This document shows positions 11,074 through 63,177 of a stretch of 64,000 nucleotides of DNA, one piece after another; positions within the stretch are counted from its first letter, which is position 1, and the number at the start of each line of letters is the position of its first letter. The notes beneath the pieces were generated by a model. It saw nothing but the letters and a program-made list of their open reading frames with translations, was not told where the DNA came from and made no database searches. The position numbers were made by a program, and so were the translations under genes. Origin of the DNA: Bacteroidales bacterium (lineage in GTDB: Bacteria; Bacteroidota; Bacteroidia; Bacteroidales; BM520); NCBI GenBank assembly GCA_050953245.1, contig JBMNMG010000003.1, positions 12,192 through 76,191 on the forward strand. Direction: 5' to 3'.

Positions 11074-14000
11074 TAATAGAAACTTTTGTTAATCAGTTAA
11101 CTGCAAAATATAATACTAAGGAATTGGCTGATATATGTATTGTAGTACCAAATAATAGAGCTAAATTATATATTAGAAAAGAATTAATAAATGCTATTAA
11201 TAATTATGCAGTTTTACCACAATTGTTATCTATCCAGGATTTTATGCAAATAACTGCATCGCTAATTAATAAAATAGAGATTGCAGATAATTTAACTCTA
11301 ATATTAAAATTATATGAAGTTCATAAAAATATTTACAAAACCGCTGACAATGCGGGCGATTCCCCATCATTCAGAGCTTTTTTAACCTTAGCATATACAA
11401 TTTTAAGAGACTTTAATGATTTAGATTTATACTTAGCAGATACTGACAGGGCATTTAAATATATAAATGAGGAAAAAACATTATCTATGTGGGGTATAGA
11501 TATGAATAAATTATCTGATGCAGAAAGTACTTATATTAAATATTTTAATTTTTTAAAAGATTATTATAAAAACTTTAAGGAAGAATTATTCTCTGAAAAT
11601 TTAGGGTATACAGGACAAGTGTACAGGATAGTTGCTGAAAATATAGATCAGATAATAGAGAAATTAGAGTGGAATAAGGTATTCTTTGTTGGTTTTAGTG
11701 CATTAACCAATAGTGAAATAGTTATTTTTGATAAACTTTATAAAAGTGGAAAAGCAGAGATGGTTTGGGATGTTGATTCATACTATATTTATTCTCCTCA
11801 AATCAATAAAAATGATGACAACATTCAAGAAGCAGGTATATTTTTAAGAAGATATTATTACAATAAAATTAGAAGTTTAGATTATATATCTCCTGAATTT
11901 AAACCAATTAAGTTTGATGGGTGGAAAGAAACATTTCCCAAAGAAATTCCAAATAATTTTTTAGAAAAGCCAAAAAACATTAATGTGGTATGTTCGCCCG
12001 GAGATTTTCAACAAGCACAAATAGTTGGTGAGATTTTAACCAAGAATCAATATAAAACAGGTGAAACTGCTATTATTTTAGCCGATGAAAACTTATTACT
12101 CCCGGTACTATCTTATATCCCGGATAAATACGATAGTATTAATGTATCTATGGGAGTACCCATCAGTGGAAGCAATATAAGCAGCTTAGTTGAAAATTTA
12201 TTTTTGTTATATGACAGTTACAATACTAAGAATTTTGCCTTTTATAATACAAAATACTTATTAAATATTTTTCTCAATCCAATATTTAATGATTTATTTA
12301 TAAATGCTGATGATCTAAAAGCGAAAATAGTTGAGCAAAATCAGTACGATCAGATTAGTTTACAGACATTTAAAGCTTCTTTTGATTCAGCTATTAGTGA
12401 TGGTGATCTAAAAAAAATGTTTTCTATTTTATTTGAAAATAATAATGAGCAAACTAAAATCAACACTGCAATTGTAATAGATAAGATCAATTATTTCTTA
12501 AATGTTTTTATTGAGAAATATGCAGAAGATATAAATTACTTAGTCGATATTGAAGTGGCCTTAAGCTTTGTAAAAACGTTAAATAATATCAAACAAAAAA
12601 TCTCGGATTATGATTATTTAAATGATCTTAAAAATTTCTTAGTAATATATCAAAATATTTTAAAAGAAATCTCAGTATCCTTTAAAGGAGATCCGTTCCA
12701 AGCGCTTCAAATCTTAGGAATATTAGAAACCAGATTGCTCAATTTTAAAAACTTGATAATAGTATCTGTAAATGAGGGAGTATTGCCAAAAGTAAACTTC
12801 CAAAATACTTTTTTACCTTACGAATTATCAATGGCAATAGGTATGCCGGGTAGAAAAGAAAAAGAGGGGATATTTGCTTACCATTTTTATAGATTACTTC
12901 AAAATGCAGAAAATATACACCTAATCTATAATGCTACAATAGAGGATTTTGGAGCTAATGAGAAAAGCAGGTTTATCTTACAGATTCAACATGAAATAGA
13001 TAATTATAAAAATAATATTACTTTTAAGAATGAAGAACATATAGACAATAAATATAATATTGTTAATAAAATTTCAGATTTAAATACATTATCTGAAAAA
13101 AAATCAGAAAATCTAGCAGGGATTAATGTTACTTCCGAAATTAGAGAAGTAGTTGATGACTTTTTTTCAAAGTATAGCTTATCCGCTTCATCATTTAATA
13201 TATATCTTAGATGTCAAGCGATGTTTTTTTATACTGAAATCTTAGGCTTAAAAGATGAATCGAAAGGAAAAGATAATAGCGGTGTTTTAATTGGAAGCAT
13301 AACACATAAAGTTTTAGAAGAATTATATACAACTTTCTGTGACACGAAAGACGATTCAAATAAATCAAACCTCAAATTAACAGTAGAAAAATTAGACAAC
13401 ATTGATTCAGTAACAATTAATAATCAAATAATAAAAGCATTTAAAGATGAAAATATAGATCCCTCAATTGGCTTAAATGTATTAATGCGTGAACTTATAG
13501 CACAATATATTGTTAAAATGATAAATACAGATAAGACCTTTTTATTATCAGGAGATAAAGACAACAATTATAATACATTAGAAATTCAATATTTAGAGAA
13601 AAGTTTAGAAATAAATCCTATATTAGAAGGAAACAAATATACCATTAAAGGTTTTTTAGATAGGGTAGAAAGAGCAAATGGTCAGTTAGTAATAATGGAT
13701 TATAAAACCGGTTCTTTTGATTCAAACATAACTGAAATAAATGCAGAAGAATTTTTTGAGAAATTAAAAGAAGATGAAATAGACTTAGACTATTTTGCTT
13801 TTAAAAAATCTTCTGATATTAATCAATATATAGTACAGTTATTAAATTATGCATATTTGTATTTTAAAGATAATACAAAACTGACAAAAGGAAAAGACAA
13901 ACACATCAAATTAGGAATTTATGCTTTAAAGCATCACGATCATTCTGCAAATATTGACTCTACAAATGATGAAAATATTATCAAAAAACTCTTATTAGTA

Positions 14001-14470: not shown

Positions 14471-14545
14471 GGGAGTTTAGCTCAGTTGGTTCAGAGCACC
14501 TGCCTTACAAGCAGGGGGTCACTGGTTCGACCCCAGTAACTCCCA
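14471..14545 (+). tRNA. tRNA-Val (anticodon UAC)
   Basis: Cloverleaf readable by eye: acceptor GGGAGTT/AACTCCC, D-loop AGCTCAGTTGGTTCAGAGC, anticodon stem CCTGC/GCAGG with loop CTTACAA, T-arm GGTTCGACCCC. CCA not encoded. Confidence 0.9.
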
Positions 14546-31371: not shown

Positions 31372-34059
31372 TTATTCAAATATTATTAACTTATTAATAT
31401 CATCAACAATAATCATGCCAACGCGTTCAAGAGTTTTCTTGTTAAAAAGAAAGTCATAAGGTATCTTATTGTTGACTACCACGGGAACATCATTAATTTC
31501 TTTATTTCCAAATCTGACACTCTTTATGTTAATTACAGCTTTCTCTTTAATCATTCCTTGAGAAATTAATTGAGTTGGATCTCCTTCAAAGTCTTCAATA
31601 GTAATTGAACCCTTTTGAAGTAAATCTACTGCTTTTTCTTGTGAAATATAGTTAACTCCCATTAATGGCTCATATTCAAAACTTGCAGTATAACCATTGG
31701 CTATACATTTAGATATCATTTTATTATTTTTTGTTAATACGTAACTTACAAAGTTTTGATTAGGGTCTACAACTATATTTATAAATTCCTGATAATCTGC
31801 AATTTGTGTAGTGTCTTCAGGGTTGTATGTTTCTTGAACAAAATCTCTACTAATAATTGTAAATTCCGTACGTCTGTTTAATGTGTTTGCAGCAAGTTTA
31901 ATAGTTTGATTTGGAAGGGTTTCAATATAATCTTCTGTTAAAGTAGTGCCGGCTGGAAAAGTAAAACCGTTAACGGAATAATCTTCATATAACGTACGAG
32001 GTCTTCGTTCACCATATCCCTTTGCAACTAATCTCTTAGAATTAATTCCTCTGTCAATTAAGTAGGAAACTACTGACTCTGCACGTTTTTGTGATAAAAT
32101 GTCATTACTTTCCAAACTTCCAACCATATCAGTATGTGAGGCAAGTTCTATTACGATATTAGGATTGTCATTTAAGGTTTGAATTAAACCTTGTAATGAG
32201 TCTTGATATTGAGTTCTCAATTCCCATTTGCCAAATTCATATAAAATATCAGGTAATACGATTGGAGCTTCCGGGATAGGGGATAAAATGAAGTTTTGAG
32301 TAAAATCTTTACTTTCGTTTAATCCTATAGTACTAAACTCTCCGCTTACATTAAAATAGCCTTCTTTTTCTGCAATAAGCTCATAAGCGTTATTTTCTTT
32401 TAATTGCGATTTAGTAAAAGTATATTTTCCATTATCATTAGTTCTTACTTCTGCAGTTTTGCCATCTGTTCCCGTCAGTTTTACTATTACATTAGGAACA
32501 TATTGTAATGTGTTTTTATCCGTGATAATACCTGAAACTGTAAATTCTACAGCTGGAATTACAAATGCATATATGTCATCACCACCTCTTCCTCCTTTTC
32601 TGTTAGAAGTGAAGAAACCTTCTTCTTTTTCAGGATGAAATAAAATTCCAAAATCGTCACTACTTGAGTTAATTGGTGCACCTATATTTTCAGGAATACT
32701 CTTAGGGAAACCGTCATTTCCTAAATAAACTCTAAATATATCTAAACCTCCTAATCCTGGATGTCCATTAGATGCAAAATATAAAGTAGTATCGTTTCTA
32801 AAATATGGAAAAACTTCATCTCCTTTAGTGTTTACTAAATTACCCATATTTATCGGCATATCAAAGTTATCACTAACGTTTTCCCTTGTAGCAAAATATA
32901 AATCCTTACCTCCTAAAGAACCCTTTCTATCACTGGCAAAAACTATAGTTAATTCATCGGGACTAATAGCGGGATGCCCATCTATACACAAACTATCGTC
33001 GCCTAATTGAACCGGTTGAGGATCAGACCATCCAAAACCTCCGGTTCGTTTGGCTACAAATATTTTACAACCCCCAAAAATATCTTTGCTATCAGGGCAG
33101 TAAGTGTAATATAATCTATTTGCTCTAAAATTAGTATGACCTGCACCTTCATTACCTGTAGTATTAATAACTTCATCTGTATCTGCATTTTCAGGTTTGC
33201 TCCATTTACCATCTACATCATAACTTGCAGTAAAAAAATCACTAAAATGCTGACCTGTCCATAAATCTATTTCTTTACCTGTAGCCTCAGATCTGGCAGA
33301 TGTATATATAATTGAAGTGTATGATTGGTCGTCCCAAGTAGGACAAAAATCGTCATATTTAGAGTTAATAATTTTAACTTTAGATATTTCGCATTTATTA
33401 GGATTTTCTTGTAGTTTTAAAACTAAATCACAAGATTCTAACCCAGCTAATGCTAAAGGATTATTAGGTGAGAGTTCCAAAAACTCAGCATATTTTTCTT
33501 TTGCTAAAATGTAATCTTCACTATAACGCAATGCATCAGCATATTTTAAGATCACAGTAGAATCTACTAAATGATGTTTATATCTTATGGCGTTTTTGTA
33601 TTGTGCTGTAGCTAATTTTGAATTCCCGGTATTTACATAGCAATCGCCCAAGTTATTTGAAATTCTTCCTCTTTCCTTTCTGTCCTTTTTTGAACGAGAG
33701 TAAGCTTTCTTATATTTTTTAATTGCAGTAGAGTAATAGTTTTCCTGAAATAATTTGTCTGCGGCAACTACGTGTTTATTTTCTTTTTGTTTTTTGTTTT
33801 TTTCTTTTTTATCTTTCTTTTTATTATTTTTTGTTTTTTTCTTCCCTTTATCTAAAAAATCATTTGAACTCTCTGTGTCGCTTGTAGTAATAAACTCGAT
33901 ATCTTCAATTTTTAAAATATTAGAAGACATATTATCTTGTACTAATATATTATTATTTGCAAACGTATATTGCACATTTACAGATAGTATCAAAACAGTA
34001 ATACTTATACTTATATTTAATATCTTTCTATTCATTTTTTTCAATTTCACAAAATACAA
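31372..34059 (-). CDS. OmpA-family protein with TPR, PD40/WD40-like and CarbopepD_reg-like domains
   Basis: C-terminal OmpA peptidoglycan-binding motif (ELASHTD...SNDILSQKRAESV), Lys-rich low-complexity linker, TPR-like segment. An alternative start at 34035 (MNRKIL...) gives a better signal peptide. Confidence 0.85.
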   Translation of the reverse strand: MYFVKLKKMNRKILNISISITVLILSVNVQYTFANNNILVQDNMSSNILKIEDIEFITTSDTESSNDFLDKGKKKTKNNKKKDKKEKNKKQKENKHVVAADKLFQENYYSTAIKKYKKAYSRSKKDRKERGRISNNLGDCYVNTGNSKLATAQYKNAIRYKHHLVDSTVILKYADALRYSEDYILAKEKYAEFLELSPNNPLALAGLESCDLVLKLQENPNKCEISKVKIINSKYDDFCPTWDDQSYTSIIYTSARSEATGKEIDLWTGQHFSDFFTASYDVDGKWSKPENADTDEVINTTGNEGAGHTNFRANRLYYTYCPDSKDIFGGCKIFVAKRTGGFGWSDPQPVQLGDDSLCIDGHPAISPDELTIVFASDRKGSLGGKDLYFATRENVSDNFDMPINMGNLVNTKGDEVFPYFRNDTTLYFASNGHPGLGGLDIFRVYLGNDGFPKSIPENIGAPINSSSDDFGILFHPEKEEGFFTSNRKGGRGGDDIYAFVIPAVEFTVSGIITDKNTLQYVPNVIVKLTGTDGKTAEVRTNDNGKYTFTKSQLKENNAYELIAEKEGYFNVSGEFSTIGLNESKDFTQNFILSPIPEAPIVLPDILYEFGKWELRTQYQDSLQGLIQTLNDNPNIVIELASHTDMVGSLESNDILSQKRAESVVSYLIDRGINSKRLVAKGYGERRPRTLYEDYSVNGFTFPAGTTLTEDYIETLPNQTIKLAANTLNRRTEFTIISRDFVQETYNPEDTTQIADYQEFINIVVDPNQNFVSYVLTKNNKMISKCIANGYTASFEYEPLMGVNYISQEKAVDLLQKGSITIEDFEGDPTQLISQGMIKEKAVINIKSVRFGNKEINDVPVVVNNKIPYDFLFNKKTLERVGMIIVDDINKLIIFE

Positions 34060-34195
34060 ATTTAAAAGTTTTTTTCTAATAAACTACTAACAAAACAAAA
34101 ATATACTAAGAAGTTGATTATTATAGTTTATGTATTATTAGTATTTTTATTCTGTTACAAGAGAAAAGTATTTCTGAACTCTTTAAATAGGATAT

Positions 34196-34330
34196 CCCCA
34201 AAAATACGCCACCCCAAATATATAATTCAAATTAATATATTTGGGGTGGGAGTGGTACGAACCTTTCGGCACGATCCTGTCTGATAATTTATTAATCCCC
34301 ATCAGCATCAGGGGAAACTGTACATTCGAT
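34196..34330 (-). ncRNA. family A structured RNA, copy 1 (leader of the OmpA-family gene, ends in a terminator hairpin)
   Basis: Core GGACAGGAUCGUGCCGAAAGGUUCGUACCACUCCC is shared with copy 3. Bipartite helix CCUG..CUGAU/AUCAG.CAGG. 15-bp perfect hairpin 34209-34249 plus a U-run, ~135 nt before the ATG at 34059. Confidence 0.45.
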
Positions 34331-34393
34331 GTAAGTATAATATTATTTTTAATAAATCTTATATCTACAATAAAATTAATAAGATTTATGTAA

Positions 34394-34490
34394 TGGGAGA
34401 GCCCGATAATTTAATATCGAGCTCAACATCTGGTCCGAACCTTTCGGCACGATCCTGTCTGATAATTCCAAACCCCATCAGCATCAGGGT
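34394..34490 (-). ncRNA. family A structured RNA, copy 2 (tandem, upstream of copy 1)
   Basis: Same 5' helix and GAAA hairpin as copy 1. It has a different 3' hairpin (GAGCTCGATA/TATCGGGCTC) and no U-run. Confidence 0.4.
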
Positions 34491-34535
34491 TATTTTTAAA
34501 TTTTTTTGCAATTATAATTATAATGCAATTTTTTT

Positions 34536-34615
34536 AAAAAAAATATGAGTGAACATTACATCCACTGCCCCGGCTAAGCTCATGAATCACTCGCCGCCTT
34601 CGGCTTTTTACAGCA
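34536..34615 (-). ncRNA. family B small RNA cassette, copy 3
   Basis: Own TATATTTG -7 box (34619-34626, minus strand). Conserved GCUGUAAAAAGCCGAAGGCGGC...AGCUUAGCCGGGG scaffold. Terminator AGTGGA/TTCACT plus a U8 run. Confidence 0.45.
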
Positions 34616-34765
34616 TTACAAATATACATAAATTTTTTAAGAATAACAAAAAAGCAAAAAAACTTTTTTTATTAAAATAAATATTTTAAATTTGTAAAAA
34701 TTATTTTATAAGTATTAAATAATTTTAACGAAGATTAATTAACTAACCAAATTAAATTTAAAATT

Positions 34766-35862
34766 ATGAAATTAAATTCTAGACACATTAAAGTTATCAT
34801 TTTGGGTATTTTTGCCCTTTTTTCAGTTGCTGTAACAGCACAGAATATGGACCGCTACATAAGCTTCAAGTAGTTCCGGGACAACGAATTGGTATTGAGC
34901 TCTCGTCGCAAAACGTTAACAATGTCATTGCGAGAATAGTTAGTGGCTCTACAGATGTAACAGTTCCGGTTGAAAATTAGTGGTGGTCGGATGTAGAGTA
35001 TTATCTTGCAGATGCCGACACAATGGTAATTTATGGTGATGTTGAACAGTTTGATTGTCAAGAGAATGGTTCTAAAATAACAGGTTTGGACGCATCTCAT
35101 AATGACTTGTTGGATTATTTAGATTGTACCAATTGTGAAATAGAATCATTGAATATCAGTGGTTGTTATAGATTAACTGATTTATATTGCATGGGAAACA
35201 AGATCCCAGAGATCGACCTAAGTAGTTGTGCAAGCGTTATGGGTCACCTGTTTTGTTTCAATAATGAAATTTCAGAGTTGGATTTGAGTGGCTGTGTTAA
35301 AATGAGAGAACTTGATTGCCATAATAATAATATTTCCAGTTTAGATGTTTCGGACTGCCAGAGATTGATATTTTTGAGTTTTTATGGCAATCCTATAACT
35401 ACTGAGGTTGTTGATAAGATTTATTGTGATGTGGGAGATAATCATGGTGAAGAATTTCCAGGAAACATTATGCCTTTGTATAATGAAAATGATGAAAACT
35501 TCGATATTGTGATGCAAACAAATAAGGAAAATGCTACTGTTAAGAACTGGAAAGTTGTATTTAGCTCTTATAATGATATTCCACCTACTTCCGGAGATTA
35601 CGATTGTAATGCAAGTATAGATGAATTTGCAAATGTTGAAAATGCAACGATAGATATTATTCCTAATCCTGCCATATCTTCTGTTACGATTTCAGTTGAC
35701 GAATCAATTTCAGGTAAAACTTTGAAAATTTTCGATATTTCAGGAAGATTAGTTTATCAAAGTGAAGCACAAAACCAACAAGATATTTCTGTAAGCGAGT
35801 GGGCAAGCGGAGTATGTTTTGTAAAGATAGGTAATACTACAACTAAATTGATAAAACAATAA
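34766..35862 (+). pseudogene. leucine-rich-repeat T9SS surface protein, frameshift plus in-frame TAG
   Basis: A signal-peptide ORF (34766-34873) is out of frame with the LRR body. The body frame carries TAG at 34978-34980 (VEN*WWSD). LRR units (LDxSxCxxLxxLxCxxNxI) and a C-terminal sorting domain follow. Confidence 0.7.
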
Positions 35863-35929
35863 AAGATAGTCCTCGCTGTCCTAATGACAGTTTTGAGTTA
35901 TTTATTATATATAAAAAATATAATTTGTT

Positions 35930-35961
35930 AAAAGCTGTCTCATTATGAGACGGCTTTTTTT
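35930..35961 (+). terminator. intrinsic terminator
   Basis: GCTGTCTCA/TGAGACGGC stem (one G-U pair) plus a T7 run. Confidence 0.7.
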
Positions 35962-36195
35962 ATTTTGCTATACAATAGTAAGAGTTATGAATCAGAAAGA
36001 AGGAATGTTTTTTCTTTTTTCAAAAGGTGTGTGTTGCTATCTGAATAAATGCAAAAGAATATTGATAGAAATAATTTTTTTTGGATGCGATAATTAGAAA
36101 TTATTAATTTTTTATCGCTAAATTTTACTTAATACAAAATTTAAATTAATTTTGTAGATAATTGCAATTAATATTTAAAAGTAAAATTGAAAAAA

Positions 36196-40912: not shown

Positions 40913-42061
40913 ATGGTAATATCAATAATAAAAGATTTAGAAAAACAAATACAAAAGATTTATCCTGAAATAGTTTCAGTTAGACGAAAACTTCACCGAT
41001 ATCCGGAACTATCTTTTAACGAAAAATATACATCATCCCTAATTGTTGATTTTTTAGAAAAATGCCAATTGAAACCTAAAATAATTGAAGAATCCTATTC
41101 AGTTGTTTGTGATATAGTTACAGATGAATCAATTAAAAAAACTGTATTAAGGGCAGATATAGATGCATTACCAATTCAAGAAGAAACAAGACTTTCCTTT
41201 AGTTCTATAAATAGAGGGGTTATGCATGCATGTGGACATGATATCCACATATCTATTTTGCTTGGAGTTGCAAAAATCTTATCAGAGAATTTAGACCAAA
41301 TAAAAGTTAACATCAGGCTGTTGTTTCAAAGTGGAGAAGAAGAATATCCCGGTGGAGCTGCTAAATTAGTGGAAAAAGGATATATAAACTCGGAAGAAGT
41401 AAAAAGAGCTTTTGGACTACATGTAAGCCCAGAATTAAAAACCGGAACAATAGGGCTTCATGCAGGCAACTTTATGGCATCTGCAGATGAAATCCACATT
41501 AAAATAATAGGTAAAGGAGGTCATGCAGCAAAACCTGATGAATTTATTAATCCTATCTATTTTGCATCTAAAGCTTGCGTAATGCTTTGTAAACCAATAC
41601 CTAACATCAAAAATAAATATATTTTGTCGATTGGCAAATTTATAGCTGATGGTGCAACTAATGTAATACCTAACTGTGTTGAAATGCAAGGCACATTGCG
41701 GACTTTTGACGAAGCTGATAGAAAAAAACTACACAAATTTATTAAAGACACCTTAAAATTTTCGGCACTTCATAATGTAAAGTACAAGTTAGAAATCTTA
41801 AAAGGTTATCCGTCATTATATAACGATCCTGACTTAACTGAATACGCACAAGAAAAGCTCTCCAATATATTAGGCAAAGAAAATGTGGTAGAAGTACCTG
41901 AAAGATATACATCAGATGACTTCGCATATATTTCAAAAGCAGTTCCCAGCTGTTATATGAGATTGGGCTGCAATTCAAATACACGACAACATACCTCGAA
42001 ATTTAATCCTGATGAGAAAAGTATCTACTACGGGATGTTAACTTTTCTTATTCTTCTTTGA
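40913..42061 (+). CDS. M20-family amidohydrolase (N-acyl-amino-acid amidohydrolase type)
   Basis: MHACGHDIH metal-binding motif, QSGEE, dimerisation insert. 382 aa. Confidence 0.8.
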   Translation: MVISIIKDLEKQIQKIYPEIVSVRRKLHRYPELSFNEKYTSSLIVDFLEKCQLKPKIIEESYSVVCDIVTDESIKKTVLRADIDALPIQEETRLSFSSINRGVMHACGHDIHISILLGVAKILSENLDQIKVNIRLLFQSGEEEYPGGAAKLVEKGYINSEEVKRAFGLHVSPELKTGTIGLHAGNFMASADEIHIKIIGKGGHAAKPDEFINPIYFASKACVMLCKPIPNIKNKYILSIGKFIADGATNVIPNCVEMQGTLRTFDEADRKKLHKFIKDTLKFSALHNVKYKLEILKGYPSLYNDPDLTEYAQEKLSNILGKENVVEVPERYTSDDFAYISKAVPSCYMRLGCNSNTRQHTSKFNPDEKSIYYGMLTFLILL

Positions 42062-42067
42062 TTCTTT

Positions 42068-42296
42068 GGGATGGCTTCCCGAAAAATCTGGGATGGCTTC
42101 CCGAAAAATCCGAGATGGCTTCTCGAAAATATTGGGATGGCTTCCCGAGAATTCCGAGATGGCTTCTCGAAAAAATGTTGTATATATCAGTATATCAGAG
42201 CTTTATGTTTGGGATGGCATCCCCAGAAATCTGAGATGGCTTCCCTGAAATATTGAGATGGCTTCCCGAAAATATTGAGATGGCTTCCCGAAAAAT
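42068..42296. repeat. tandem array, 9 copies of a 22-bp unit (consensus GAGATGGCTTCCCGAAAATATT), one 33-bp interruption
   Basis: Counted directly. Units start at 42068, 42090, 42112, 42134, 42156, 42211, 42233, 42255 and 42277. The array runs from just after the M20 stop codon to the terminator at 42297-42330. Confidence 0.9.
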
Positions 42297-42330
42297 AAAA
42301 AAAGTCGTGTAAAAACTTACACGACTTTTT
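42297..42330. terminator. intrinsic terminator
   Basis: AAGTCGTGTAA/TTACACGACTT stem flanked by an A-run and a T-run. Confidence 0.75.
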
Positions 42331-42381
42331 ATTATGATTTAATATTTTAATCTTAGCTATTTTTTCTATTGGTACAACATA

Positions 42382-52159: not shown

Positions 52160-52381
52160 ATGGGATTTTCATATAACAAATTATGGAAGTTATTAATAGA
52201 TAAAAATATGAAAAAAACAGACTTACAATGTGCAATAGCAACAACACCCAAGACAATAGCAAAAATGGGAAGAGACGAAAATGTAAGTTTAGAAACATTA
52301 GGAAAGATTTGTGAATATTTTCAGTGTGATATTGGAGATATTATTGAATACAGAAGAAAGAATGAAGAGGAAATCAAATGA
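52160..52381 (+). CDS. small XRE-family HTH protein (candidate R-M controller, C protein)
   Basis: 73 aa HTH (KKTDLQCAIATTPKTIAKMGRDENVSLETLGKICEYF). GGAG sits 6 nt upstream of the ATG. ATGA overlap with the first methyltransferase gene. Confidence 0.6.
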   Translation: MGFSYNKLWKLLIDKNMKKTDLQCAIATTPKTIAKMGRDENVSLETLGKICEYFQCDIGDIIEYRRKNEEEIK

Positions 52382-53406
52382 GATTTATTGGTGGCAAAAC
52401 GCTGATTATACCATATATATTAGAATTAATTAAAGAAAAAACAATAGATGTGAAAAGTATATCAGATGTATTTGCTGGTTCAGGAGTAGTTTCTCGTGAA
52501 TTTAAAAATCTCGGATATGATGTTATATCTAACGATTTGATGTATTTTTCATATGTGTTATTAAGAGGAACAGTTGGGATAAATTCTAAATTAGAATTTA
52601 TAAATTTAGGTATATCAGATCCAATAGCATATCTAAATAAACTTACTTTAGAAAATATGAATTTAGATTTAGAGAACTGCTTTATTTACCAAAATTATAG
52701 TCCTAATGGTGGAAGAATGTATTTCACAGAAGATAATGCTTTAAAAATTGATTTAGTTAGGGCTCAGATTGAAAACTGGTATGAAGCTTCTATGATCAAT
52801 GAAGACGAGTATTTTTACTTACTTGCATGTCTTATAGAAGCAGTACCTTTTGTAAGCAATATAACAGGTGTATATGGAGCTTATTTAAAGCATTGGGATA
52901 AAAGGGCATTAAATAATTTAGAAATAAAAAATGTAGATTTATCAATTAATAATTCAGTAGGACAAGCATATAATGAAGATTCTAATAAATTAATTGAAAA
53001 TATAAAAACAGATTTAGCATACTTTGACCCACCATATAATCAAAGACAGTACTTGCCTAATTATCATGTATTAGAAACAATTGCTAAATATGATTCTCCT
53101 AGAATAAAAGGAGTGACTGGATTAAGAGATTATTCTGAACAAAAAAGTGACTATTGTAAAAAAGACTCAGTTTACAATGCTTTTGAAGATTTAATCAAAA
53201 AGACTAATTCGAAATATATTATTCTTAGCTATAATACAGAAGGATTATTATCCCATGATGAGATTATTAGTATTTTAGAAAAATATGGAAAGCGAGATAC
53301 TGTAGACTACAAATTTATCGACTATAGAAGATATAAGAACGCACATACAAATAAAAATAAAAACTTAAAAGAAATATTATATTTTGTAGAAAAGGAGCAG
53401 TTATGA
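52378..53406 (+). CDS. N6-adenine DNA methyltransferase (Dam/D12 class), equivalent to the N-terminal half of M.FokI
   Basis: MRFIGGK start, DVFAGSG (motif I), FDPPY (motif IV). 342 aa. Confidence 0.85.
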   Translation: MRFIGGKTLIIPYILELIKEKTIDVKSISDVFAGSGVVSREFKNLGYDVISNDLMYFSYVLLRGTVGINSKLEFINLGISDPIAYLNKLTLENMNLDLENCFIYQNYSPNGGRMYFTEDNALKIDLVRAQIENWYEASMINEDEYFYLLACLIEAVPFVSNITGVYGAYLKHWDKRALNNLEIKNVDLSINNSVGQAYNEDSNKLIENIKTDLAYFDPPYNQRQYLPNYHVLETIAKYDSPRIKGVTGLRDYSEQKSDYCKKDSVYNAFEDLIKKTNSKYIILSYNTEGLLSHDEIISILEKYGKRDTVDYKFIDYRRYKNAHTNKNKNLKEILYFVEKEQL

Positions 53407-54251
53407 GCGGAAATTATATAAAATCACCATTTAATTACATTGGAAATAAACATAGATTATTAGCTCAAATATTGCCTCTATTTCCTCAAAATATAGACAC
53501 TTTCTATGATGTGTTTTGTGGTGGTTTAGATGTTTCTGTTAATGTTAAAGCGAATAGGAAAATAGCTAATGATATAAACTATTTTGTAATTGAAATTTTA
53601 GAAATGTTTAAAAAGACTGATAGCAAAGAACTTTTACAAGATATTGATGATGTAATAAGTAAATTTAATTTATCTAAAGATAACAAAGAATCATATTATG
53701 AATTTAGAGAATATTATAATAAAAATAAAGACCCGCTTTTGCTATATGTTTTGATGTGTTATTCCTTTAATTACCAGTTTAGGTTTAATTCAAATCATGA
53801 CTATAATAACCCTGCTGGAACTAATAGGAGTAGTTTTAATGAAAATATGAAAAATAGACTTACTTCTTTTAGAGACAAACTTTTCAATATAGAATTTAGC
53901 AATAAGAATTTTAAAGAATTTGATTTTTCTAAAATTAAAAGTTCAGACTTTGTATATTGTGATCCGCCTTATAGAAGCTCTGTAGGTTCATATAATGATG
54001 GTAAAAGAGGATTTGAAGGATGGACTCTTGATGATGATCTAGCCTTATTTGATATATTAGATGAATTAAATGATAGAAATATTAAATTTGCATTATCAAA
54101 TGTATTTTTTAATAATGGATTAGCTAATAAAGAGTTACAAGAGTGGAGTAGAAAATATAAAGTCCACTTGTTAAAGATAAATTACTCAAATAGTAATTAT
54201 CAACGTAATAAGCTAGGCGAAACTGAAGAAGTTTTGATTACAAATTACTAG
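53403..54251 (+). CDS. N6-adenine DNA methyltransferase (Dam/D12 class), equivalent to the C-terminal half of M.FokI
   Basis: NYIGNKHRLL, DVFCGG (motif I), CDPPY (motif IV). 282 aa. AAGGAG SD and ATGA overlap. Confidence 0.85.
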   Translation: MSGNYIKSPFNYIGNKHRLLAQILPLFPQNIDTFYDVFCGGLDVSVNVKANRKIANDINYFVIEILEMFKKTDSKELLQDIDDVISKFNLSKDNKESYYEFREYYNKNKDPLLLYVLMCYSFNYQFRFNSNHDYNNPAGTNRSSFNENMKNRLTSFRDKLFNIEFSNKNFKEFDFSKIKSSDFVYCDPPYRSSVGSYNDGKRGFEGWTLDDDLALFDILDELNDRNIKFALSNVFFNNGLANKELQEWSRKYKVHLLKINYSNSNYQRNKLGETEEVLITNY

Positions 54252-54259
54252 GAGGAAAT

Positions 54260-56033
54260 ATGGCAGAAAGAACATTGGGTTGGATACAAAATCCATCAAG
54301 TTTTGAAAATTTAAAAAATGTAGTTTCTGTTTTTGATAAAAATACTGATATGTATAAGGAAATCTTAAATACTAAACTTCCTAAATTAGTAAAAGATTTA
54401 GAATTACAAAATAAACTTATTTCAGAAATGAAAAAAGATCCACTTGAAATGGACTATGTTTTATTAAAAGGTCATGGTATAAAATCAGGTCAGAAAAGAG
54501 CAGATGCAGGGTGTAGTGGTATTGTTCAAGCTGCCATTACAACACAAGGTGGTAGAGCTTACACAGATGATTGGACTGCTGATGGATTTTTAAGATGGGG
54601 AATATCCATAGGACTTTTAGATTATGATACAGAAAAAGATACTGTCTCTATAACACAACTGGGAAAGGATTTTGTTTACTCAGATTCTGAAGATTTGGAT
54701 AAAGAAATATTAACTACTGCATTTTTATCATATCCACCAGCAGTAAGAATTTTGACTTTATTAGAAAATGGTGAGCATTTAACTAAGTTTGAATTAGGAA
54801 AACAACTTGGTGGACTTGGAGAAGCTGGATTTACCTCTATACCTCAAGATTTATATATCCAAGCAATAGAACTAGCAGCTGATAAAGACAAAGCAAGTAT
54901 TCGTTCAAATACAGAAGGTTCAGCTGATAAGTATGCTAGGATGATTTCTGGCTGGTTATCTAAAGTCGGGCTTAGTTCAAAGAATTGAAAAAGAAGTTTC
55001 TACTAAGATAGGTAGATGTCGAGTATAAAGTTAAAATTGGTCATTCTTTTAGAATTACATTAAAAGGAATCAAAGAATTAAAAAGGGCAAGGGGTATATC
55101 ATCTTCATTCCAAAGACTGATAAAATAGTGTATTGGCAAATGTTAGCAACTAAGGGCAAGGACAGAGACTATATTAGAAATAGACGTGGACATATAATTA
55201 ATTCAATTACTAATAGAGATAGAACCTTAGAAGATATAAAAGTTTATCTGTCAGAAAATGATATAAAAGAAAGCATTGCAACAATAGAAGATGAATTAAA
55301 AGTTATTGAAGCGATAGGATTATCAGTTAAACATGGTAGGAATGGATATTCGATAGATGATAATATAATTAAATTGGCAATTCCAAGAACAAAGATTTCT
55401 AAGACTAATGTATTGGAATTAAAAGACAAAGTTAGGGATAGATTGAAATATGTTGATCACAGATATCTCGCACTAATTGATTTAGCTTATGACGGAACTG
55501 CTAATAGAGATTTTGAAATTCAAACAATAGACCTTTTAATTAATGAACTTAAGTTTAAAGGGGTTCGTCTAGGAGAAAGCAGAAAACCAGATGGAATTAT
55601 ATCTTATAATATTAATGGCGTAATTATAGATAACAAGGCTTATTCTACTGGATATAATCTACCAATTAATCAAGCAGATGAAATGATTAGATATATCGAA
55701 GAAAATCAAACTAGAGATGAAAAAATAAATTCAAATAAATGGTGGGAAAGCTTTGATGAAAAAGTTAAGGATTTCAACTATTTATTTGTATCATCTTTCT
55801 TTAAGGGAAACTTTAAGAATAATTTGAAACATATAGCTAATAGAACTGGTGTAAATGGTGGAGCTATTAATGTAGAAAATTTATTGTATTTTGCAGAAGA
55901 ATTAAAAGCTGGAAGATTATCTTATATTGATTCATTTACGATGTATGATAATGATGAGATATATGTAGGAAATATTATGGATTATAGTAATGTAAAAATT
56001 GCTGCTGAAGAAGAAAGTCATTATTCGATTTAA
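54260..56033 (+). pseudogene. FokI-family type IIS restriction endonuclease, three frameshifts
   Basis: The N-terminal ORF aligns by eye to the FokI recognition domain (GWIQNPSSFENLK...YPPAVRILTLLE...SADKYARMISGWL). The C-terminal ORF aligns to the FokI linker and cleavage domain (SRKPDG...IIDNKAY...GYNLPINQADEMIRYIEENQTR). Frame path is 2>0>1>0 between 54970 and 55126. Confidence 0.85.
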
Positions 56034-56083
56034 TAACAAGGATTATTTTTATTAAAAATACAATCTAAGTGGAGGATTAAATT

Positions 56084-57724
56084 TTGAAATACGCTCAATA
56101 TTACAAATGTGCTTTGCAAGTAAATCCAAGCGCATACTCTCAATATCGTGGGAAAGAAAAAATGGATGAATCAGAATATAATACACAAATCTTAAATATA
56201 TGTAAAGAAGAAAATATTAGAGTAGTTGGTTTAGCAGATCATGGCTCAGTTGAAAGAGCAGAAAATCTAAGAAAACTTCTAACAGATAATGGTATTTTAG
56301 TTTTTCCAGGATTTGAAATATCTACGGCAGAAAAAATTCATATAGTTTGTTTATTCTCTCCAGAAACAGATGCTAATGAGCTAAACCGTATTCTAGGACA
56401 ATTAGGAATGCCAGAAATAAAAAATGGTACAGAAAAAAGTAATTTATCCTGTATTGATATAGCTAAAAAGATAGCTGAAAATGATGGATTTTGGTATGCT
56501 GCACACATAACTAGTGATAATGGAATTTTAAAGCTAGGTCAATTACAACATGTGTGGACAAATGAATTATTAATAGCGGCTCAAATTCCAGATAGTGAAG
56601 AAAAAATAGATCCAAACTATAAAAATATAATTAAAAATAAAGAACCTCATTATAAAAGAAAAAACGTTGTTGCTTATATAAATGCTAAAGACATTTGCGA
56701 TCCAATGGATTTGAAACTTGAAACTGCAACCACACTTATTAAAATGTCTGAATTAAACTTTGATTCATTTAAGTCTGCATTTACAGATCCAACATCAAGA
56801 ATTAAGCTAAATAGTTCTATAAAAACAAAATATAAAAGTTATATCTCAAGAATATGTGTAAAAGGCGGTTATTTAGATGGGCTGGAGCTAGATTTCTCTG
56901 ATGAATTAAATACTATAATAGGTGGAAGAGGTACCGGAAAATCGACTTTAATTACTTTTATAAGATATGTATTAGGAAACTACTCATATGACAAAGAATT
57001 AGAAAAAGAAATTGAAGACATGATTAAAAATAATTTAGGGACATCTGGAGAAATAAATATCTACTTATCTTCATATTCACTTAATGGGCAAAAATATAAG
57101 TTAATAAAAAGATATAATCAAAATACTACTGTATTTAATGAAGATGGTAGTTTGTCTGAATTAACTATCACAGATCTTTTGCCTAAGATAGAAATTTATG
57201 GTCAAAATGAATTAATCGACGCAATTAAATCTTCAGAAACAATTACTAATATTGTTAAACGTTTAATAAAAATTGATGAGAATATTTTAAAAGAAAAGAA
57301 AATGTTCTATAAAGAATTGAAAGAGAACACCCAAAAGATAATCTCCATTAACGAGGAAATAAATAAATTAGGAGCAACACGTCAGGCATTATTAAATTTA
57401 GCAAATGATATAATTAGGCTAAATGAAGAAAATAAAATTTTAGGTTTAAGTAAAGAAGAACTTTCTTTTTATCATGCAATCAGTAATCCTGAGAATATTT
57501 CTGACTTTTATACAAATAAAGAGTTAATAGACTTAACACAAGACCTGACCCAGACTATTTCAAAGGAGATGACCTCCGACTGGATGATGAGAGAATCTGG
57601 CATAGCAAATATGAGAAGAACAGTAAAAAGGCTGTTGGCAGATTATAACTATCCTGAAAACCATCGAAGTGATATTATTGATCTAATAGTTGAGCAAGCA
57701 GAGTATTTTGATATAGGAGCATAA
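56084..57724 (+). CDS. chimeric ORF: PHP-like domain plus Walker-A ATPase N-lobe fused to an HsdR C-terminal (DUF3387-like) tail
   Basis: N-terminus has YKCALQVNP...GLADHGS...GFEIS..KIHIVCLF (PHP-like), then Walker A GGRGTGKST and a coiled coil. The last ~110 aa (LGLSKEELSFYHAI...DWMMRES...VKRLLADYNYP...VEQAEYF) match the type I HsdR C-terminus. No Walker B or signature region is visible. Confidence 0.55.
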   Translation: MKYAQYYKCALQVNPSAYSQYRGKEKMDESEYNTQILNICKEENIRVVGLADHGSVERAENLRKLLTDNGILVFPGFEISTAEKIHIVCLFSPETDANELNRILGQLGMPEIKNGTEKSNLSCIDIAKKIAENDGFWYAAHITSDNGILKLGQLQHVWTNELLIAAQIPDSEEKIDPNYKNIIKNKEPHYKRKNVVAYINAKDICDPMDLKLETATTLIKMSELNFDSFKSAFTDPTSRIKLNSSIKTKYKSYISRICVKGGYLDGLELDFSDELNTIIGGRGTGKSTLITFIRYVLGNYSYDKELEKEIEDMIKNNLGTSGEINIYLSSYSLNGQKYKLIKRYNQNTTVFNEDGSLSELTITDLLPKIEIYGQNELIDAIKSSETITNIVKRLIKIDENILKEKKMFYKELKENTQKIISINEEINKLGATRQALLNLANDIIRLNEENKILGLSKEELSFYHAISNPENISDFYTNKELIDLTQDLTQTISKEMTSDWMMRESGIANMRRTVKRLLADYNYPENHRSDIIDLIVEQAEYFDIGA

Positions 57725-57959
57725 TGATGTTTTAAGAAAATTAATCAACGATTCAATCAGATCTAAACCTGCAAGTAAACTCTTGATAAATTTTCTGTTA
57801 AAAAAGAAACTGATAGTATTCCTTTTGAAATAAAAAAATTAGGGATATTAATATACCTGATAGACTGGATAAATTAAAATCACTTGCAATGAAAATGATT
57901 AAAAAAACACCTTTTTTGTTTATTTCTTGTGTATTATAAAATAAGTATTATATTTGTAG

Positions 57960-58038
57960 TAATAATTAGTAAGAGTCTTTTTAAACGAGAGCGTGGATTG
58001 TTGTTCCACGAGGCAGTTTAAGAAGACTCTTATTTTTT
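57960..58038 (+). ncRNA. family C small RNA cassette
   Basis: TATATTTG -7 box at 57949-57956. Long hairpin TAAGAGTCTTTTTAAAC/GTTTAAGAAGACTCTTA encloses CGTGGA/TCCACG, followed by a T6 run. Confidence 0.4.
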
Positions 58039-58154
58039 ATTCCAATATCAGATTATTGCTGTTAGAAATACTATTAAAACAGAAATTGTTCTCAACTTTT
58101 TGTTAGCGATAAAATATTCTTTTGTTTATTTGAAAAATATTATTATATTTGTAA

Positions 58155-58231
58155 TGCTGTAAAAAGCCGAAGGCGGCGCGAGTAACGTCAAGCTTAGCCG
58201 GGGAGGTGGATGTAATGTCCACCTTTTTTTT
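58155..58231 (+). ncRNA. family B small RNA cassette, copy 1
   Basis: TATATTTG -7 box at 58144-58151. GCCGAAGGCGGC hairpin. Terminator GGTGGA/TCCACC plus a T8 run. Confidence 0.45.
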
Positions 58232-58272
58232 GTTTTCACTTGTTTATTTGAAAAATATTATTATATTTGTAA

Positions 58273-58348
58273 TGCTGTAAAAAGCCGAAGGTGGCGCGAG
58301 TAACGTCAAGCTTAGCCGGGGAGGTGGATGTAATGTCCACTTTTTTTT
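58273..58348 (+). ncRNA. family B small RNA cassette, copy 2 (118-bp tandem duplicate)
   Basis: -7 box at 58262-58269. Near-identical to copy 1, with one C>U change that keeps a G-U pair in the first hairpin. Confidence 0.45.
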
Positions 58349-59077: not shown

Positions 59078-61219
59078 ATGATGCAGGATAATACTGTAAA
59101 TATAATATTTAAGATAAGTGGTAATGCAACTGAAGCGATGCAGGACATTACAAAGCAATCTGCAGAAGTTGCAAAGTCCATTAATAAAACTGCAGGGTTT
59201 TTTGACAGCTTGGGTGGTAAAATACTTGTTATAAATCAAATTACAGCAGGTTTACAAAACTTAAGCAATGCATTTAACAGTGCCATTCAACCGGGCATTG
59301 CCCTTAATTCGCAACTATTAGACTTGTCGGCAATAGCTAATGTTGCAGGTGAAGATCTTAAACGTATTGAGGGCTATGCACGTGAAAGTGCTATGGCTTT
59401 TGGACTTGATGCGGCACAATCAGTAGAAAGTTATAAGTTACTACTATCACAACTGTCACCGGAGCTTGCAAAAGCACCTAAAGCACTTAAGACAATGGGT
59501 GAAAATGTCGCAGTGCTAAGCAAAACAATGGGCGGTGATACAACAGCGGCTGCAGAAGTATTGACAACCGCAATGAATCAGTTCGGAGTAAGCTTAAAAG
59601 ACCCTACAGAAGCTGCAAAGACAATGGCAAACATGATGAATATTATGGCTGCTGCAGGGCGTGAAGGCTCTGCAGAGTTGCCGGCAATTAAAGTTGCATT
59701 GGAACAAGCAGGTATGGCAGCAAAGGCTGCAAACGTATCTTTCGAGGAAACCAATGCAGCAATACAAGTACTTGACAAAGCAGGCAAGAAAGGCAGTGAA
59801 GGTGGTGTTGCACTTCGTAACGTGTTAAACACACTTGCAAGAGGTCGTTTTTTACCTAAAGATGTGTTAGAGGAACTGCAAGCTGCAGGTGTTAATGTAA
59901 GTAGTTTAACGGATAAAACAAAAACACTTACAGAGAGATTGCAGGTGTTACAACCGGTACTTAAAGATGATGCACTGTTTTCAAAACTATTTGGACGGGA
60001 AAACACCAATGCGGCAATGGCACTTGTACAAGGAGTGTCGCAGGTTGAAAAATATACAGAAGCAATTACCGGAACAAATACAGCATTTGAACAAGCAGAT
60101 ATTATTATGGATTCCTATGCAGAAAGACAAAAGAGAGTTCAGGCACGTTTTCAAAACATGAAAATATCAATATTCAATGCAACCGGAAGTCTGGGTATTT
60201 GGGTAGATACTATAGCAAAATCGGCAATACCACTTGCCCAGCTTGTACCACTCATTTATGGAGTTAACTCTGCCACACGTAAAATAACTGCATCTCTTGT
60301 TGCAACAAACGCAAGTATAGTAGGCACGGGAGGAATGTTTAAGTGGTTAGGTGCAACTGCAAAAAGAGTTTGTACACAGATATCTGTTGCAATTATGAAT
60401 ATTCCTATAATTGGTTGGATAGCGGCAATTATAGCAGCAATAATAGCAGTATCGGCAATATTGTGGAATAAAAGTGAGGGTTTTAGAAAGATAGTATTAG
60501 GTGTTTGGGAGGTTATTAAGGGCATAGGACAGTATCTGCTACAGTTGGGTAAAAAGATATTTAGTAACTTTATTGAAGGCTTTAAAAACCTATTAAATGC
60601 ACTTAAAACAGTGTTTAATGCTATTGTAGGTTTTATTAGGAAGATCAAAGACTTCTTTGTAAGAATGTTTAATTGGGTCACTGAAAAGCTAAAAAACCTA
60701 ACCGGTTTCTTAAAGCGTGTATTTGCTCCGGTAATTAAGTTTTTTGAATCATTATGGGATTATATAAAAGCAATATTCAATAACATCTCACAATTTATGG
60801 GAAAACTGTTTAATCCGGTTATTAAGCTATGGAATAAGATGACCGGTAAAACAGTAGAGTTATATACCACAGGAGCAGCTAAAGGGTCAGAGAGTTGGAA
60901 TAAGAAAAACAAAACTCAAGAGGATCAACCCTTAAGTACGTTAGATACCTTAGATGCTATAGGTGGACTTACTGAATCCGCAACAAGCTTTGGAGGTGAT
61001 TATGGTTTTAGTAACAATCTTTCAGAATCCGGTCTTGAAATAACATCAGGAGGAAAGCAGATCAAGAATGTAAACATAAGCATTGGATCACTTATTGGGA
61101 CAAACACAAACATATTCTCATCGTCAAAAGATGATCCAGCTTCTGCAGATGATTTTATGAGCAAATTAAGTAATGCATTGATGCAAATAGTAAACGATGC
61201 AAATTATGTAGTAGAATAA
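59078..61219 (+). CDS. phage tail tape measure protein (TP901-type core)
   Basis: 713 aa, Ala/Gly-rich helical N-terminal core (AIANVAGEDLKRIEGYARESAMAFGLDAAQS...), central hydrophobic segment (IIGWIAAIIAAIIAVSAILW). Visibly higher G+C than the flanks. Confidence 0.8.
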   Translation: MMQDNTVNIIFKISGNATEAMQDITKQSAEVAKSINKTAGFFDSLGGKILVINQITAGLQNLSNAFNSAIQPGIALNSQLLDLSAIANVAGEDLKRIEGYARESAMAFGLDAAQSVESYKLLLSQLSPELAKAPKALKTMGENVAVLSKTMGGDTTAAAEVLTTAMNQFGVSLKDPTEAAKTMANMMNIMAAAGREGSAELPAIKVALEQAGMAAKAANVSFEETNAAIQVLDKAGKKGSEGGVALRNVLNTLARGRFLPKDVLEELQAAGVNVSSLTDKTKTLTERLQVLQPVLKDDALFSKLFGRENTNAAMALVQGVSQVEKYTEAITGTNTAFEQADIIMDSYAERQKRVQARFQNMKISIFNATGSLGIWVDTIAKSAIPLAQLVPLIYGVNSATRKITASLVATNASIVGTGGMFKWLGATAKRVCTQISVAIMNIPIIGWIAAIIAAIIAVSAILWNKSEGFRKIVLGVWEVIKGIGQYLLQLGKKIFSNFIEGFKNLLNALKTVFNAIVGFIRKIKDFFVRMFNWVTEKLKNLTGFLKRVFAPVIKFFESLWDYIKAIFNNISQFMGKLFNPVIKLWNKMTGKTVELYTTGAAKGSESWNKKNKTQEDQPLSTLDTLDAIGGLTESATSFGGDYGFSNNLSESGLEITSGGKQIKNVNISIGSLIGTNTNIFSSSKDDPASADDFMSKLSNALMQIVNDANYVVE

Positions 61220-61230
61220 ACAGTGTTAAG

Positions 61231-61752
61231 ATGATAAGAATAACAACAGGAGACCAAACCATAGATATACATACTTATGACAAAGCAAACTTACGTGTAC
61301 CAACAGTTGCGGGATACCCGCAACATATTATGAGTATTCCTAAGAACAACGTGATATTACGCAATAAAAACAACGATACTATTGAATTTTTTGACGTAAA
61401 AATTGATGTAACTAAAGCAAACAATATTGTAAGTACACCACTTGTAAACAGACATGGTGAAATCAAAGAATTTATACAACAACAAGATTATACAATCAAA
61501 TTTAGTGGTAACATCATAGAAGAACGTGGAATATTCCCGTATGAAGAGTTAAAGAAGTTAAATGACATCTTAAATGAAGAGGACAGTTTAGATGTATCAA
61601 GTGAATACTTAAATTGCTTTGGAATTACTAAAATTGCATTAGAAAAAGCTAATTTTAAACAAAGTAGTATTAAATATTATAATTTAATGCCTTTTGAATT
61701 AAATTTTAAAAGCGATATGGATTATGAGTTTTTAATAATGGATAATCAATAA
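61231..61752 (+). CDS. hypothetical protein in the distal-tail-protein position
   Basis: Starts 12 nt after the tape measure stop. 173 aa. Assignment rests on position only. Confidence 0.35.
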   Translation: MIRITTGDQTIDIHTYDKANLRVPTVAGYPQHIMSIPKNNVILRNKNNDTIEFFDVKIDVTKANNIVSTPLVNRHGEIKEFIQQQDYTIKFSGNIIEERGIFPYEELKKLNDILNEEDSLDVSSEYLNCFGITKIALEKANFKQSSIKYYNLMPFELNFKSDMDYEFLIMDNQ

Positions 61753-62279: not shown

Positions 62280-62448
62280 AATAGGGTAATTTAACATGTT
62301 AATTTTAAGATGTAACGTACAAATATCATGCAAAAGTGGCAAAATAATTACATTTAATTATGTTAATGAGATAATTGTAAATAAAAAATGGGATTCTATC
62401 CAATTTGCAAACACTTTAAATTCAGGCTATTAACTTGCAATTTCAAAT

Positions 62449-62486
62449 AAAAGAAAGGGAAGCCAAAAGAAAGGGAAGCCATCCCC
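62449..62486. repeat. 2 x 16-bp tandem repeat containing the reverse complement of the 42-kb array core
   Basis: AAAAGAAAGGGAAGCC x2 followed by ATCCCC. 62473-62485 is the reverse complement of GGGATGGCTTCCC. Confidence 0.8.
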
Positions 62487-62611
62487 AAAATAGAGATGTA
62501 ATGGCGCTGTTTAACGAAGGTGATAGTCGTGATTTTGGAATATGAATGTGAAAGAATTATGGAATTTTTTGTTTTACTTGTTTAACTAAAAAAAAGTACT
62601 ATATTTGCAAC

Positions 62612-62747
62612 GTATTAACCTTGATGCCGATAGGTTCATAATTATCGGACAGGATCGTGCCGAAAGGTTCGTACCACTCCCGCCTCAAATAGGTAGAAAT
62701 GTGTAAATAGATAGAATGTATTATGTATTTGAGGCGGTGTATTTTTA
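62612..62747 (+). ncRNA. family A structured RNA, copy 3 (orphan, no downstream gene)
   Basis: TATATTTG -7 box at 62601-62608. The 34-nt core is identical to copy 1. Compensatory changes occur in two helices. Terminator hairpin 62681-62738 plus a U-run. Confidence 0.45.
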
Positions 62748-63177
62748 AGGAGTTCTGACTTGTTTCTCTCCCGTAATAATAATGGATTCAATCTGGTCCA
62801 TGCATGCAAGAAAGATCCCCTAAAAACGACTTTTTCCAATCAAAATTTATTGAAAAATTCTCATTTTTATCTGATAATTAAACTTTTATTAAATCAGATT
62901 AAGAAAAAGCCTTTTTTTATTAAAATATTAGGTACAATTTGGATAAAATCAGAATGATATTAGACTTTTTTTTGTCTTAATTTTATCTATTTTTTGATAT
63001 TAGACATACGGATGGCTGTTCGGCAATTAAGCGAATTTGGAGGTTTGAGTAGAGTAGTTTTTAGATATAATTGATATTAATTATATCAATTATTTTTATT
63101 TACTTGTTACTATTAATTAGCTGATATTAAGCCTACTCAGTACTTTTGTTTTATCAATATGGATTTTGTTATATCAA

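Follow-up and report, generated by a model that had tools for sequence, protein, structure and literature searches.

Results

Family A, a repeated non-coding element upstream of porE

The DNA analysed here, a stretch of 64,000 nt that we refer to as the window, belongs to a Bacteroidales genome with a G+C content of ~29%. The locus of interest lies on the minus strand, upstream of a gene for a PorE-family type IX secretion protein that carries OmpA, PD40, TPR, and CarboxypepD_reg domains and whose closest homologue on record is an 88% identical protein. The initial annotation had given this gene 895 aa, counted from a TTG at 34059 (ORF 31372-34059), which is probably wrong given that the orthologues begin at ATG 34035; we use this ATG (887 aa), as in the orthologues and in the L015 gene call. 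With porE starting there, the U-run of the nearest copy of the element described below, previously placed ~135 nt before the start codon, lies about 165 nt upstream of it. Two copies of the element, here called family A, precede porE and a third is found on the opposite strand. Their parts are listed below, together with the scores of the conserved cores against R1, a covariance model built from the three cores.

34196-34330, minus strand: copy 1
34250-34318, minus strand: conserved core of copy 1 (R1, 90 bits), with a 5' helix or pseudoknot region and a GAAA-capped hairpin
34196-34249, minus strand: distal part of copy 1, with a 15-bp hairpin (34209-34249), a 4-nt spacer, U5 (34200-34204), and GGGG (34196-34199)
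34152-34195, minus strand: 3' tail of copy 1 and homologue of the copy 3 tail (41 nt aligned with a score of 16)
34385-34500, minus strand: copy 2
34428-34494, minus strand: conserved core of copy 2 (R1, 93 bits)
34399-34424, minus strand: distal hairpin of copy 2, GAGCUCGAUA/UAUCGGGCUC, unrelated in sequence to the distal hairpins of copies 1 and 3 and without a U-run
62606-62750, plus strand: copy 3
62614-62679, plus strand: conserved core of copy 3 (R1, 92 bits)
62680-62790, plus strand: distal part of copy 3, with a hairpin (62680-62737), U5 (62742-62746), and then the 3' tail

The 24-mer GACAGGATCGTGCCGAAAGGTTCG, an identical part of the core in copies 1-3, occurs exactly three times in the window, and no match is expected in shuffled sequence, even when three mismatches are permitted. 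The covariance-model search that had been suggested for this element, run over the window with filters off, returned copies 1-3 and nothing besides. The earlier description of a repeated, hairpin-bearing non-coding element in three copies is confirmed, and two of its details likewise hold: the 15-bp hairpin of copy 1 at 34209-34249 with its U-run, and the different distal hairpin of copy 2, which lacks one. Mutual homology between copies 1 and 3 runs ~45 nt beyond the U-run. No reading frame is conserved in family A, as a 2-nt indel shifts the frame of the core between copies 1 and 2, and copy 3 has a stop after five codons; we therefore rejected family A as a coding sequence, its frame not being kept between copies.

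Promoters and companion units

The sequences preceding and following the copies contain promoter motifs, a gene, and two further kinds of unit, which we call B and X.

62578-62607, plus strand: perfect Bacteroidetes-type promoter motif TTG-N19-TATATTTG, found by motif scan directly upstream of copy 3
63178-63939, minus strand: gene for an HUH-motif protein (253 aa, NHFHFVIK)
34530-34653, minus strand: family B unit immediately preceding copy 2, with hairpins, a U8 run, and its own promoter TTG-N20-TATATTTG
57912-58040, plus strand: unit X with promoter, hairpin, and U-run, directly upstream of two tandem B units
58117-58230 and 58235-58348, plus strand: family B units, each with a perfect promoter, internal hairpins, and a U8 run

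A perfect TTG-N19/20-TATATTTG motif precedes copy 3 and also B1, B2, B3, and X. The consensus of its -7 box, TAnnTTTG, is the published sigma-ABfr consensus (PMC7366714), and counting both strands, the 64 kb contain only 34 perfect sites of this kind. Over 47 nt, the promoter block of copy 3 shares ~70-77% identity with those belonging to X and B3 (repeat family D4). Copies 1 and 2 have degenerate boxes only (TATACTTA, TATAATTG) and no perfect -7 box, and the region upstream of copy 1 is a recognisably decayed form of the copy 3 promoter. Both clusters share a B-then-A order, namely B-A2-A1 at 34.2-34.65 kb and X-B-B...A3 at 57.9-62.75 kb, and read-through from the family B unit at 34530-34653 could extend into copies 2 and 1. 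The terminal stem of family B also contains compensatory changes (AGUGGA/UUCACU versus GGUGGA/UCCACC).

No ORF follows copy 3 on the same strand, and the next gene, that of the HUH-motif protein, is convergent. As a separate observation, the 3' half of the copy 1 hairpin together with its U-run (34196-34235, minus strand) reads TTG-N21-TATTTTTG, a possible outward-facing promoter directed towards porE; the counterpart of TATTTTTG in copy 3 is TATTTTTA.

RNA folding and compensatory base changes

The compensatory changes reported in the initial annotation are correct, with three pairs altered on both sides and pairing kept. One of them lies in the helix CUGAU/AUCAG of copy 1, which becomes CCGAU/AUCGG in copy 3, and two lie in the distal stem, where CCACCCC.../...GGGGUGG is replaced by CCGCCUC.../...GAGGCGG in copy 3. 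No disrupting change was found in the CUGAU/AUCAG and distal stems. An additional 5-bp helix can be formed by UCCCC/GGGGA in copy 1, AACCC/GGGUU in copy 2, and AACCU/AGGUU in copy 3; at three positions of this helix both partners differ, the two outer A-U pairs being weak evidence in AT-rich sequence. This helix competes with the outer CCUG/CAGG helix proposed previously and, combined with CYGAU/AUCRG, has the topology of an H-type pseudoknot, three sequences being unable to choose between the models. In total, 3-6 stem pairs are altered on both sides in three copies, two of them nearly identical, which is too few for covariation statistics.

Folding of the 67-nt core by itself is not above that of shuffled sequences (z of -0.4 to -1.3), and the z-scores of whole units (-3 to -3.8) arise mainly from the long distal hairpin. 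The strand defined by the promoter is more stable than its complement by 4-11 kcal/mol (sense versus antisense, -41.3 vs -37.3, -37.6 vs -28.1, and -42.8 vs -31.7 kcal/mol for the three copies) and makes use of G-U pairs. In the stem of the GAAA hairpin, G-U and U-U positions become A-C and A-A on the opposite strand, and family A is therefore not a symmetric DNA palindrome. The U-run of copies 1 and 3 starts 4 nt past the stem; because of this gap, both hairpins fail a simple intrinsic-terminator scan.

Distribution and genomic setting

A 20-mer of the core, searched for exactly in a set with one genome for each GTDB species, yielded no true match, and we set aside the three matches obtained in Rhizobium, a deltaproteobacterium, and an acidobacterium as chance, about one being expected. 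A core 23-mer recovered a single contig from the JGI metagenomes, identical to the copy 3 locus and from the same organism. In IMG/VR, the core and degenerate patterns gave either zero or two chance matches within coding sequence, and no match was obtained with the cores of B and X; neither cluster had a blastn match in the phage and plasmid collections. Over ~355 kb of loci, R1 found only the three copies and same-species duplicates, and in 265 kb of loci from the 88%-identical relative and same-species contigs only the window's own copies. Two viral contigs related through a tape-measure protein (see below) contain no family A copy. Among the collections searched, family A thus appears restricted to one species, and having no homologue beyond it, the family gives no evidence of long-term selection. 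Rfam 15, run over the whole window at gathering scores, matched neither family A nor B nor X, and permissive searches (E up to 10 for the copy 1-2 region and up to 1 for the copy 3 region) produced chance hairpin matches only, so that the element has no known Rfam family, as the initial annotation, which could match it to no riboswitch or Rfam motif, had suggested.

Copies 1 and 2 reside in a segment that distinguishes this species from its closest relative:

34120-36065: ~1.9-kb insert, present in this species and not in the closest relative, with an LRR protein gene and the B unit besides copies 1 and 2
35023-35862, plus strand: gene inside the ~1.9-kb insert, encoding an LRR protein with a C-terminal sorting domain for type IX secretion (Pfam)

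The LRR gene at 35023-35862 is absent from the porE spacer of the 88%-identical species. Near copy 3, we observed a prophage remnant (59078-61752) that encodes a 713-aa tape-measure protein and a baseplate-hub-like DUF6046 protein; no further phage genes were recognised around 59078-61752.

Discussion

Family A as a proposed set of small RNA gene units

We conclude that family A is genuinely repeated and probably represents a new small-RNA family with a narrow distribution. The reading that we favour, and hold with roughly even confidence, is that of a family of paralogous genes for small non-coding RNAs, each a stand-alone unit, which is restricted to this species and lies on variable or prophage-remnant DNA. 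Each unit, ~190-220 nt long, would begin with a promoter block and continue into a conserved structured domain of 65 nt, which combines a 5' helix or, possibly, an H-type pseudoknot with the GAAA-capped hairpin; a long variable hairpin with U-run and a short tail would follow. The A units would be arrayed head to tail with similarly built B and X units and carried in DNA that differs between close relatives, that is, the 1.9-kb insert and the edge of the prophage remnant, and copies 1 and 2 would lie upstream of porE owing to where the acquired DNA landed rather than to regulation of porE. We infer that the units are transcribed and that the hairpin and U-run end the transcript; copies 1 and 2, whose promoters have decayed, might be read from the B promoter or only weakly. 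The RNA itself could act in trans, by base-pairing or protein binding, like known multicopy Bacteroides sRNAs.

This small-RNA reading is supported by the perfect promoter at copy 3, which is shared with the B and X units, by the hairpin and U5 at the 3' end of copies 1 and 3, and by the sense strand, which folds better and keeps its pairs while the reading frame is not conserved. It is weakened by the hairpins of copies 1 and 3, which fail the terminator scan, by copy 2, which has no U-run, by a thermodynamically ordinary core, by the lack of a perfect -7 box at copies 1 and 2, and by the fact that kept palindromes are likewise expected of DNA repeats. When the core was compared with the translation start regions of the 47 genes in the window, complementarity did not exceed that of shuffled controls, with a best core-target duplex of -31.6 kcal/mol versus -26.9 +/- 3.3 kcal/mol for the best duplexes of shuffled cores.

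Bacteroides species possess multicopy sRNA families with canonical promoters, such as FopS with 14 paralogues and the BTnc020 group with six members; one multicopy family is also found in a phage, and the BTnc020 group adjoins transposases or invertases (PMC11697453). 'High-confidence' intergenic sRNAs of Bacteroides have their own start site and a Rho-independent terminator (PMC7366714). Family A is similar to these sRNA families in having several paralogues per genome, a TAnnTTTG promoter (at copy 3, B, and X), a 3' hairpin followed by a U-run, a conserved 5' part next to a more variable 3' hairpin, and an association with phage or mobile DNA. In contrast, its units measure ~110-140 nt rather than 65-70 nt, and its conserved part is predicted to be structured, whereas that of the Bacteroides families is a single-stranded seed. 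The likeness to FopS is one of description, and family A is known from one species only.

If the units are transcribed, an uncultured Bacteroidales lineage would gain a further multicopy small-RNA family, as yet unclassified, and there would be another case of sRNA genes that move with mobile DNA, which has been proposed for Bacteroides FopS. Beyond that, family A matters little at present, being confined to one species and indicating neither a target nor a partner. A bolder proposal, which we consider improbable, is that family A constitutes a new structured RNA class, with an H-type pseudoknot stacked on the GAAA-capped hairpin, which is carried with B and X as an sRNA-gene array on mobile or prophage DNA and acts in element-host conflict or in the control of element genes, for example by protein binding or polymerase modification and not by seed pairing.

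A DNA-level repeat as a possible alternative

A serious rival to the small-RNA reading, albeit one that we judge rather unlikely, is that family A is a DNA-level repeat, i.e. either a mobile element of the non-autonomous kind or the scar of a recombination or insertion event, with hairpins that act as DNA or reflect palindrome maintenance and have no RNA function. Palindromes, breakpoints, and species restriction fit this explanation equally well. Copies 1 (with copy 2 inside the insert) and 3 end ~40-80 nt from breakpoints of homology with related genomes. At copy 1, homology to the closest relative (L004) resumes at ~34120, within about 80 nt of the copy. At copy 3, BLAST-level homology stops at 62968 for strain L023 (94.6% nucleotide identity around the HUH gene) and at 62844 for species L047 (HUH protein 85% identical), and a three-way alignment with L023 and L047 detects weak homology to ~62788, a distance of roughly 40 nt from where the copy 3 unit ends. 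Same-species assemblies break inside A and B, a behaviour expected of repeats, and the ends of the units show short complementarity (CCCC...GGGG in copy 1, CCUU...AAGG in copy 3).

This end complementarity, however, extends over 4 nt only, and the hallmarks of a MITE are missing in so far as there are no terminal inverted repeats beyond these 4 nt and the flanking duplication is not significant at the right edge of the 1.9-kb insert (score 14 against a 95th percentile of 15); as only the left edge is significant, we claim no target-site duplication. Further arguments against a DNA repeat are the small number of copies (just three in 64 kb and none in ~265 kb of related loci), the perfect canonical promoter of copy 3, which is common to other unit types, and the asymmetry of the GAAA hairpin stem between the two strands.

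The vicinity of an HUH-type gene and of small palindromic repeats could also speak for a DNA repeat, and the initial annotation had pointed to the HUH gene when raising a REP- or MITE-like alternative. Its notion of a repeat in variable DNA stands; the link to HUH does not, since HUH homologues occur elsewhere without family A nearby: no copy was found near the homologues or the paralogue in other strains and species (L023-L049). The HUH protein at 63178-63939 has no Pfam or NCBIfam match of its own, its distant homologues carry PF01797, and in the related species the gene is single-copy in the fixed context Rex-HUH-...-DnaE. A paralogue with 50% identity is reported from a contig of 499 kb that belongs to this genome or a nearly identical one, and the motif CAGCCATCCGTAT is located downstream of both paralogues (63005-63020 in the window, ~862-875 in L035).

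REP sequences paired with RAYT (HUH/Y1) genes resemble family A in being hairpin-forming intergenic repeats near a single-copy HUH-type gene, here 63178-63939. REPs are palindromes of 20-40 nt, whereas family A is a composite of ~200 nt with a promoter and three copies, and it is absent beside the HUH homologues of other strains and species. We rejected a REP/RAYT link of family A, as the flanks of the HUH homologues and paralogues that we read contain no family A copy and carry other short palindromes instead. A tandem array at 42043-42338, which is situated at a synteny break after an M20 peptidase gene, consists of ~12 units of 22 nt, each with the palindrome GGGATGGCTTCCC, and more copies occur at 62440-62490, upstream of copy 3; TCCCTTTAGGGA palindromes are found downstream of the HUH gene in L023 (~11140-11190) and L047 (~1290-1340). 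The GGGATGGCTTCCC and TCCCTTTAGGGA palindromes suit a REP role better than family A does and may represent a REP-like repeat paired with the HUH (Y1/RAYT-like) gene.

A possible cis-acting RNA of phage origin

Alternatively, family A might be an RNA that acts in cis within the transcription unit of a phage or mobile element, for instance a put-like antitermination or processing signal after an early promoter, which was left behind after decay of the element. We consider this doubtful. The put RNAs of phage HK022 are cis-acting two-hairpin antitermination RNAs. The succession of promoter, conserved two-hairpin domain of ~65 nt, and terminator-like hairpin would suit such a function, as would the position of copy 3 at the edge of a prophage remnant with tape-measure and baseplate-hub genes and the identical B-then-A order of both clusters. 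The comparison with put is one of layout only (promoter, ~65-nt two-hairpin RNA, terminators, and phage-derived DNA), and family A differs from put in having no downstream phage genes. Copy 3 is oriented away from the remnant and faces the junction and a convergent gene, and the lack of copies in the two related viral contigs, in IMG/VR, and in the phage collection also argues against a phage signal.

The previously proposed cis-regulatory leader of porE

The initial annotation took the element for a leader that would regulate the OmpA/PorE gene in cis, as an attenuator or riboswitch, possibly with tandem sensing domains, through premature termination at ~34200. We regard this as very improbable, although two structured copies and a hairpin with U-run are indeed located upstream of porE on the same strand. 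In the closest relative, a divergent M1 peptidase gene lies 242 nt from porE and the spacer contains no family A, whereas the same pair of genes is 2.1 kb apart in the window; R1 also found no copy upstream of porE in two more distant lineages. Moreover, a putative promoter element separates copy 1 from the gene:

34057-34064, minus strand: -7 box TAAATTTG, 22 nt upstream of porE ATG 34035

Downstream of copy 1, the 90 nt adjoining the ATG, TAAATTTG among them, are almost the same in this species and its closest relative. By comparison of the orthologous loci, porE is thus predicted to have its own conserved promoter region, and elsewhere it manages without family A. Both the absence of the element at orthologous loci and the conserved porE promoter downstream of copy 1 speak against a leader.

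Copies 1 and 2 are without a good promoter, the nearest one above them belonging to the B unit, which itself has a U8 run, and copy 3 has a promoter and precedes no co-oriented gene. The copies are not consistently placed before genes. The G and C tracts located at the 5' end, in the loop, and in the distal stem vary together in copy 3, which could in principle permit alternative pairings, but complementarity between loop and terminator is just 3-4 bp compared with stems of 12-15 bp in the three sequences.

Attenuating riboswitches, including those with tandem aptamers, share with family A the structured domain or domains, the hairpin and U-run before a gene, and the arrangement of two copies in tandem. 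Unlike them, family A is not conserved before the orthologous gene, one of its copies has no downstream gene, and a conserved porE promoter region is situated between the element and the ORF; furthermore, it matches no known aptamer class, with no Rfam match even at E up to 10, and we found no convincing terminator/antiterminator alternative. The leader reading fails three of its defining features and appears already largely refuted by comparison. We suggest that the locus 34196-34490 should not be entered as a candidate riboswitch, and family A would have no bearing on the regulation of type IX secretion.

Other candidates and neighbouring genes

Several other assignments were considered for family A. 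ARAGORN predicted only a tRNA-Val at 14471, and tRNA-like, tmRNA-like, and T-arm readings were rejected by eye. Hammerhead ribozymes (CUGAUG), group II intron domain 5, and glycine, fluoride, and c-di-GMP aptamers were dropped on account of a wrong layout and the lack of an Rfam match, as were type III antitoxin repeats, integron attC sites, and DGR template repeats. IS200/IS605 ends or a TnpB/IscB guide RNA were likewise discarded, there being no tnpA, tnpB, or iscB gene beside any copy and no HEARO match.

Finally, the window contains a defence-type island at 52378-57724, which encodes two D12-class adenine methyltransferases and an AAA/T1RH-like protein. The same island harbours a split FokI-like enzyme, with separate ORFs for recognition (54260-54988) and cleavage (55128-56033).
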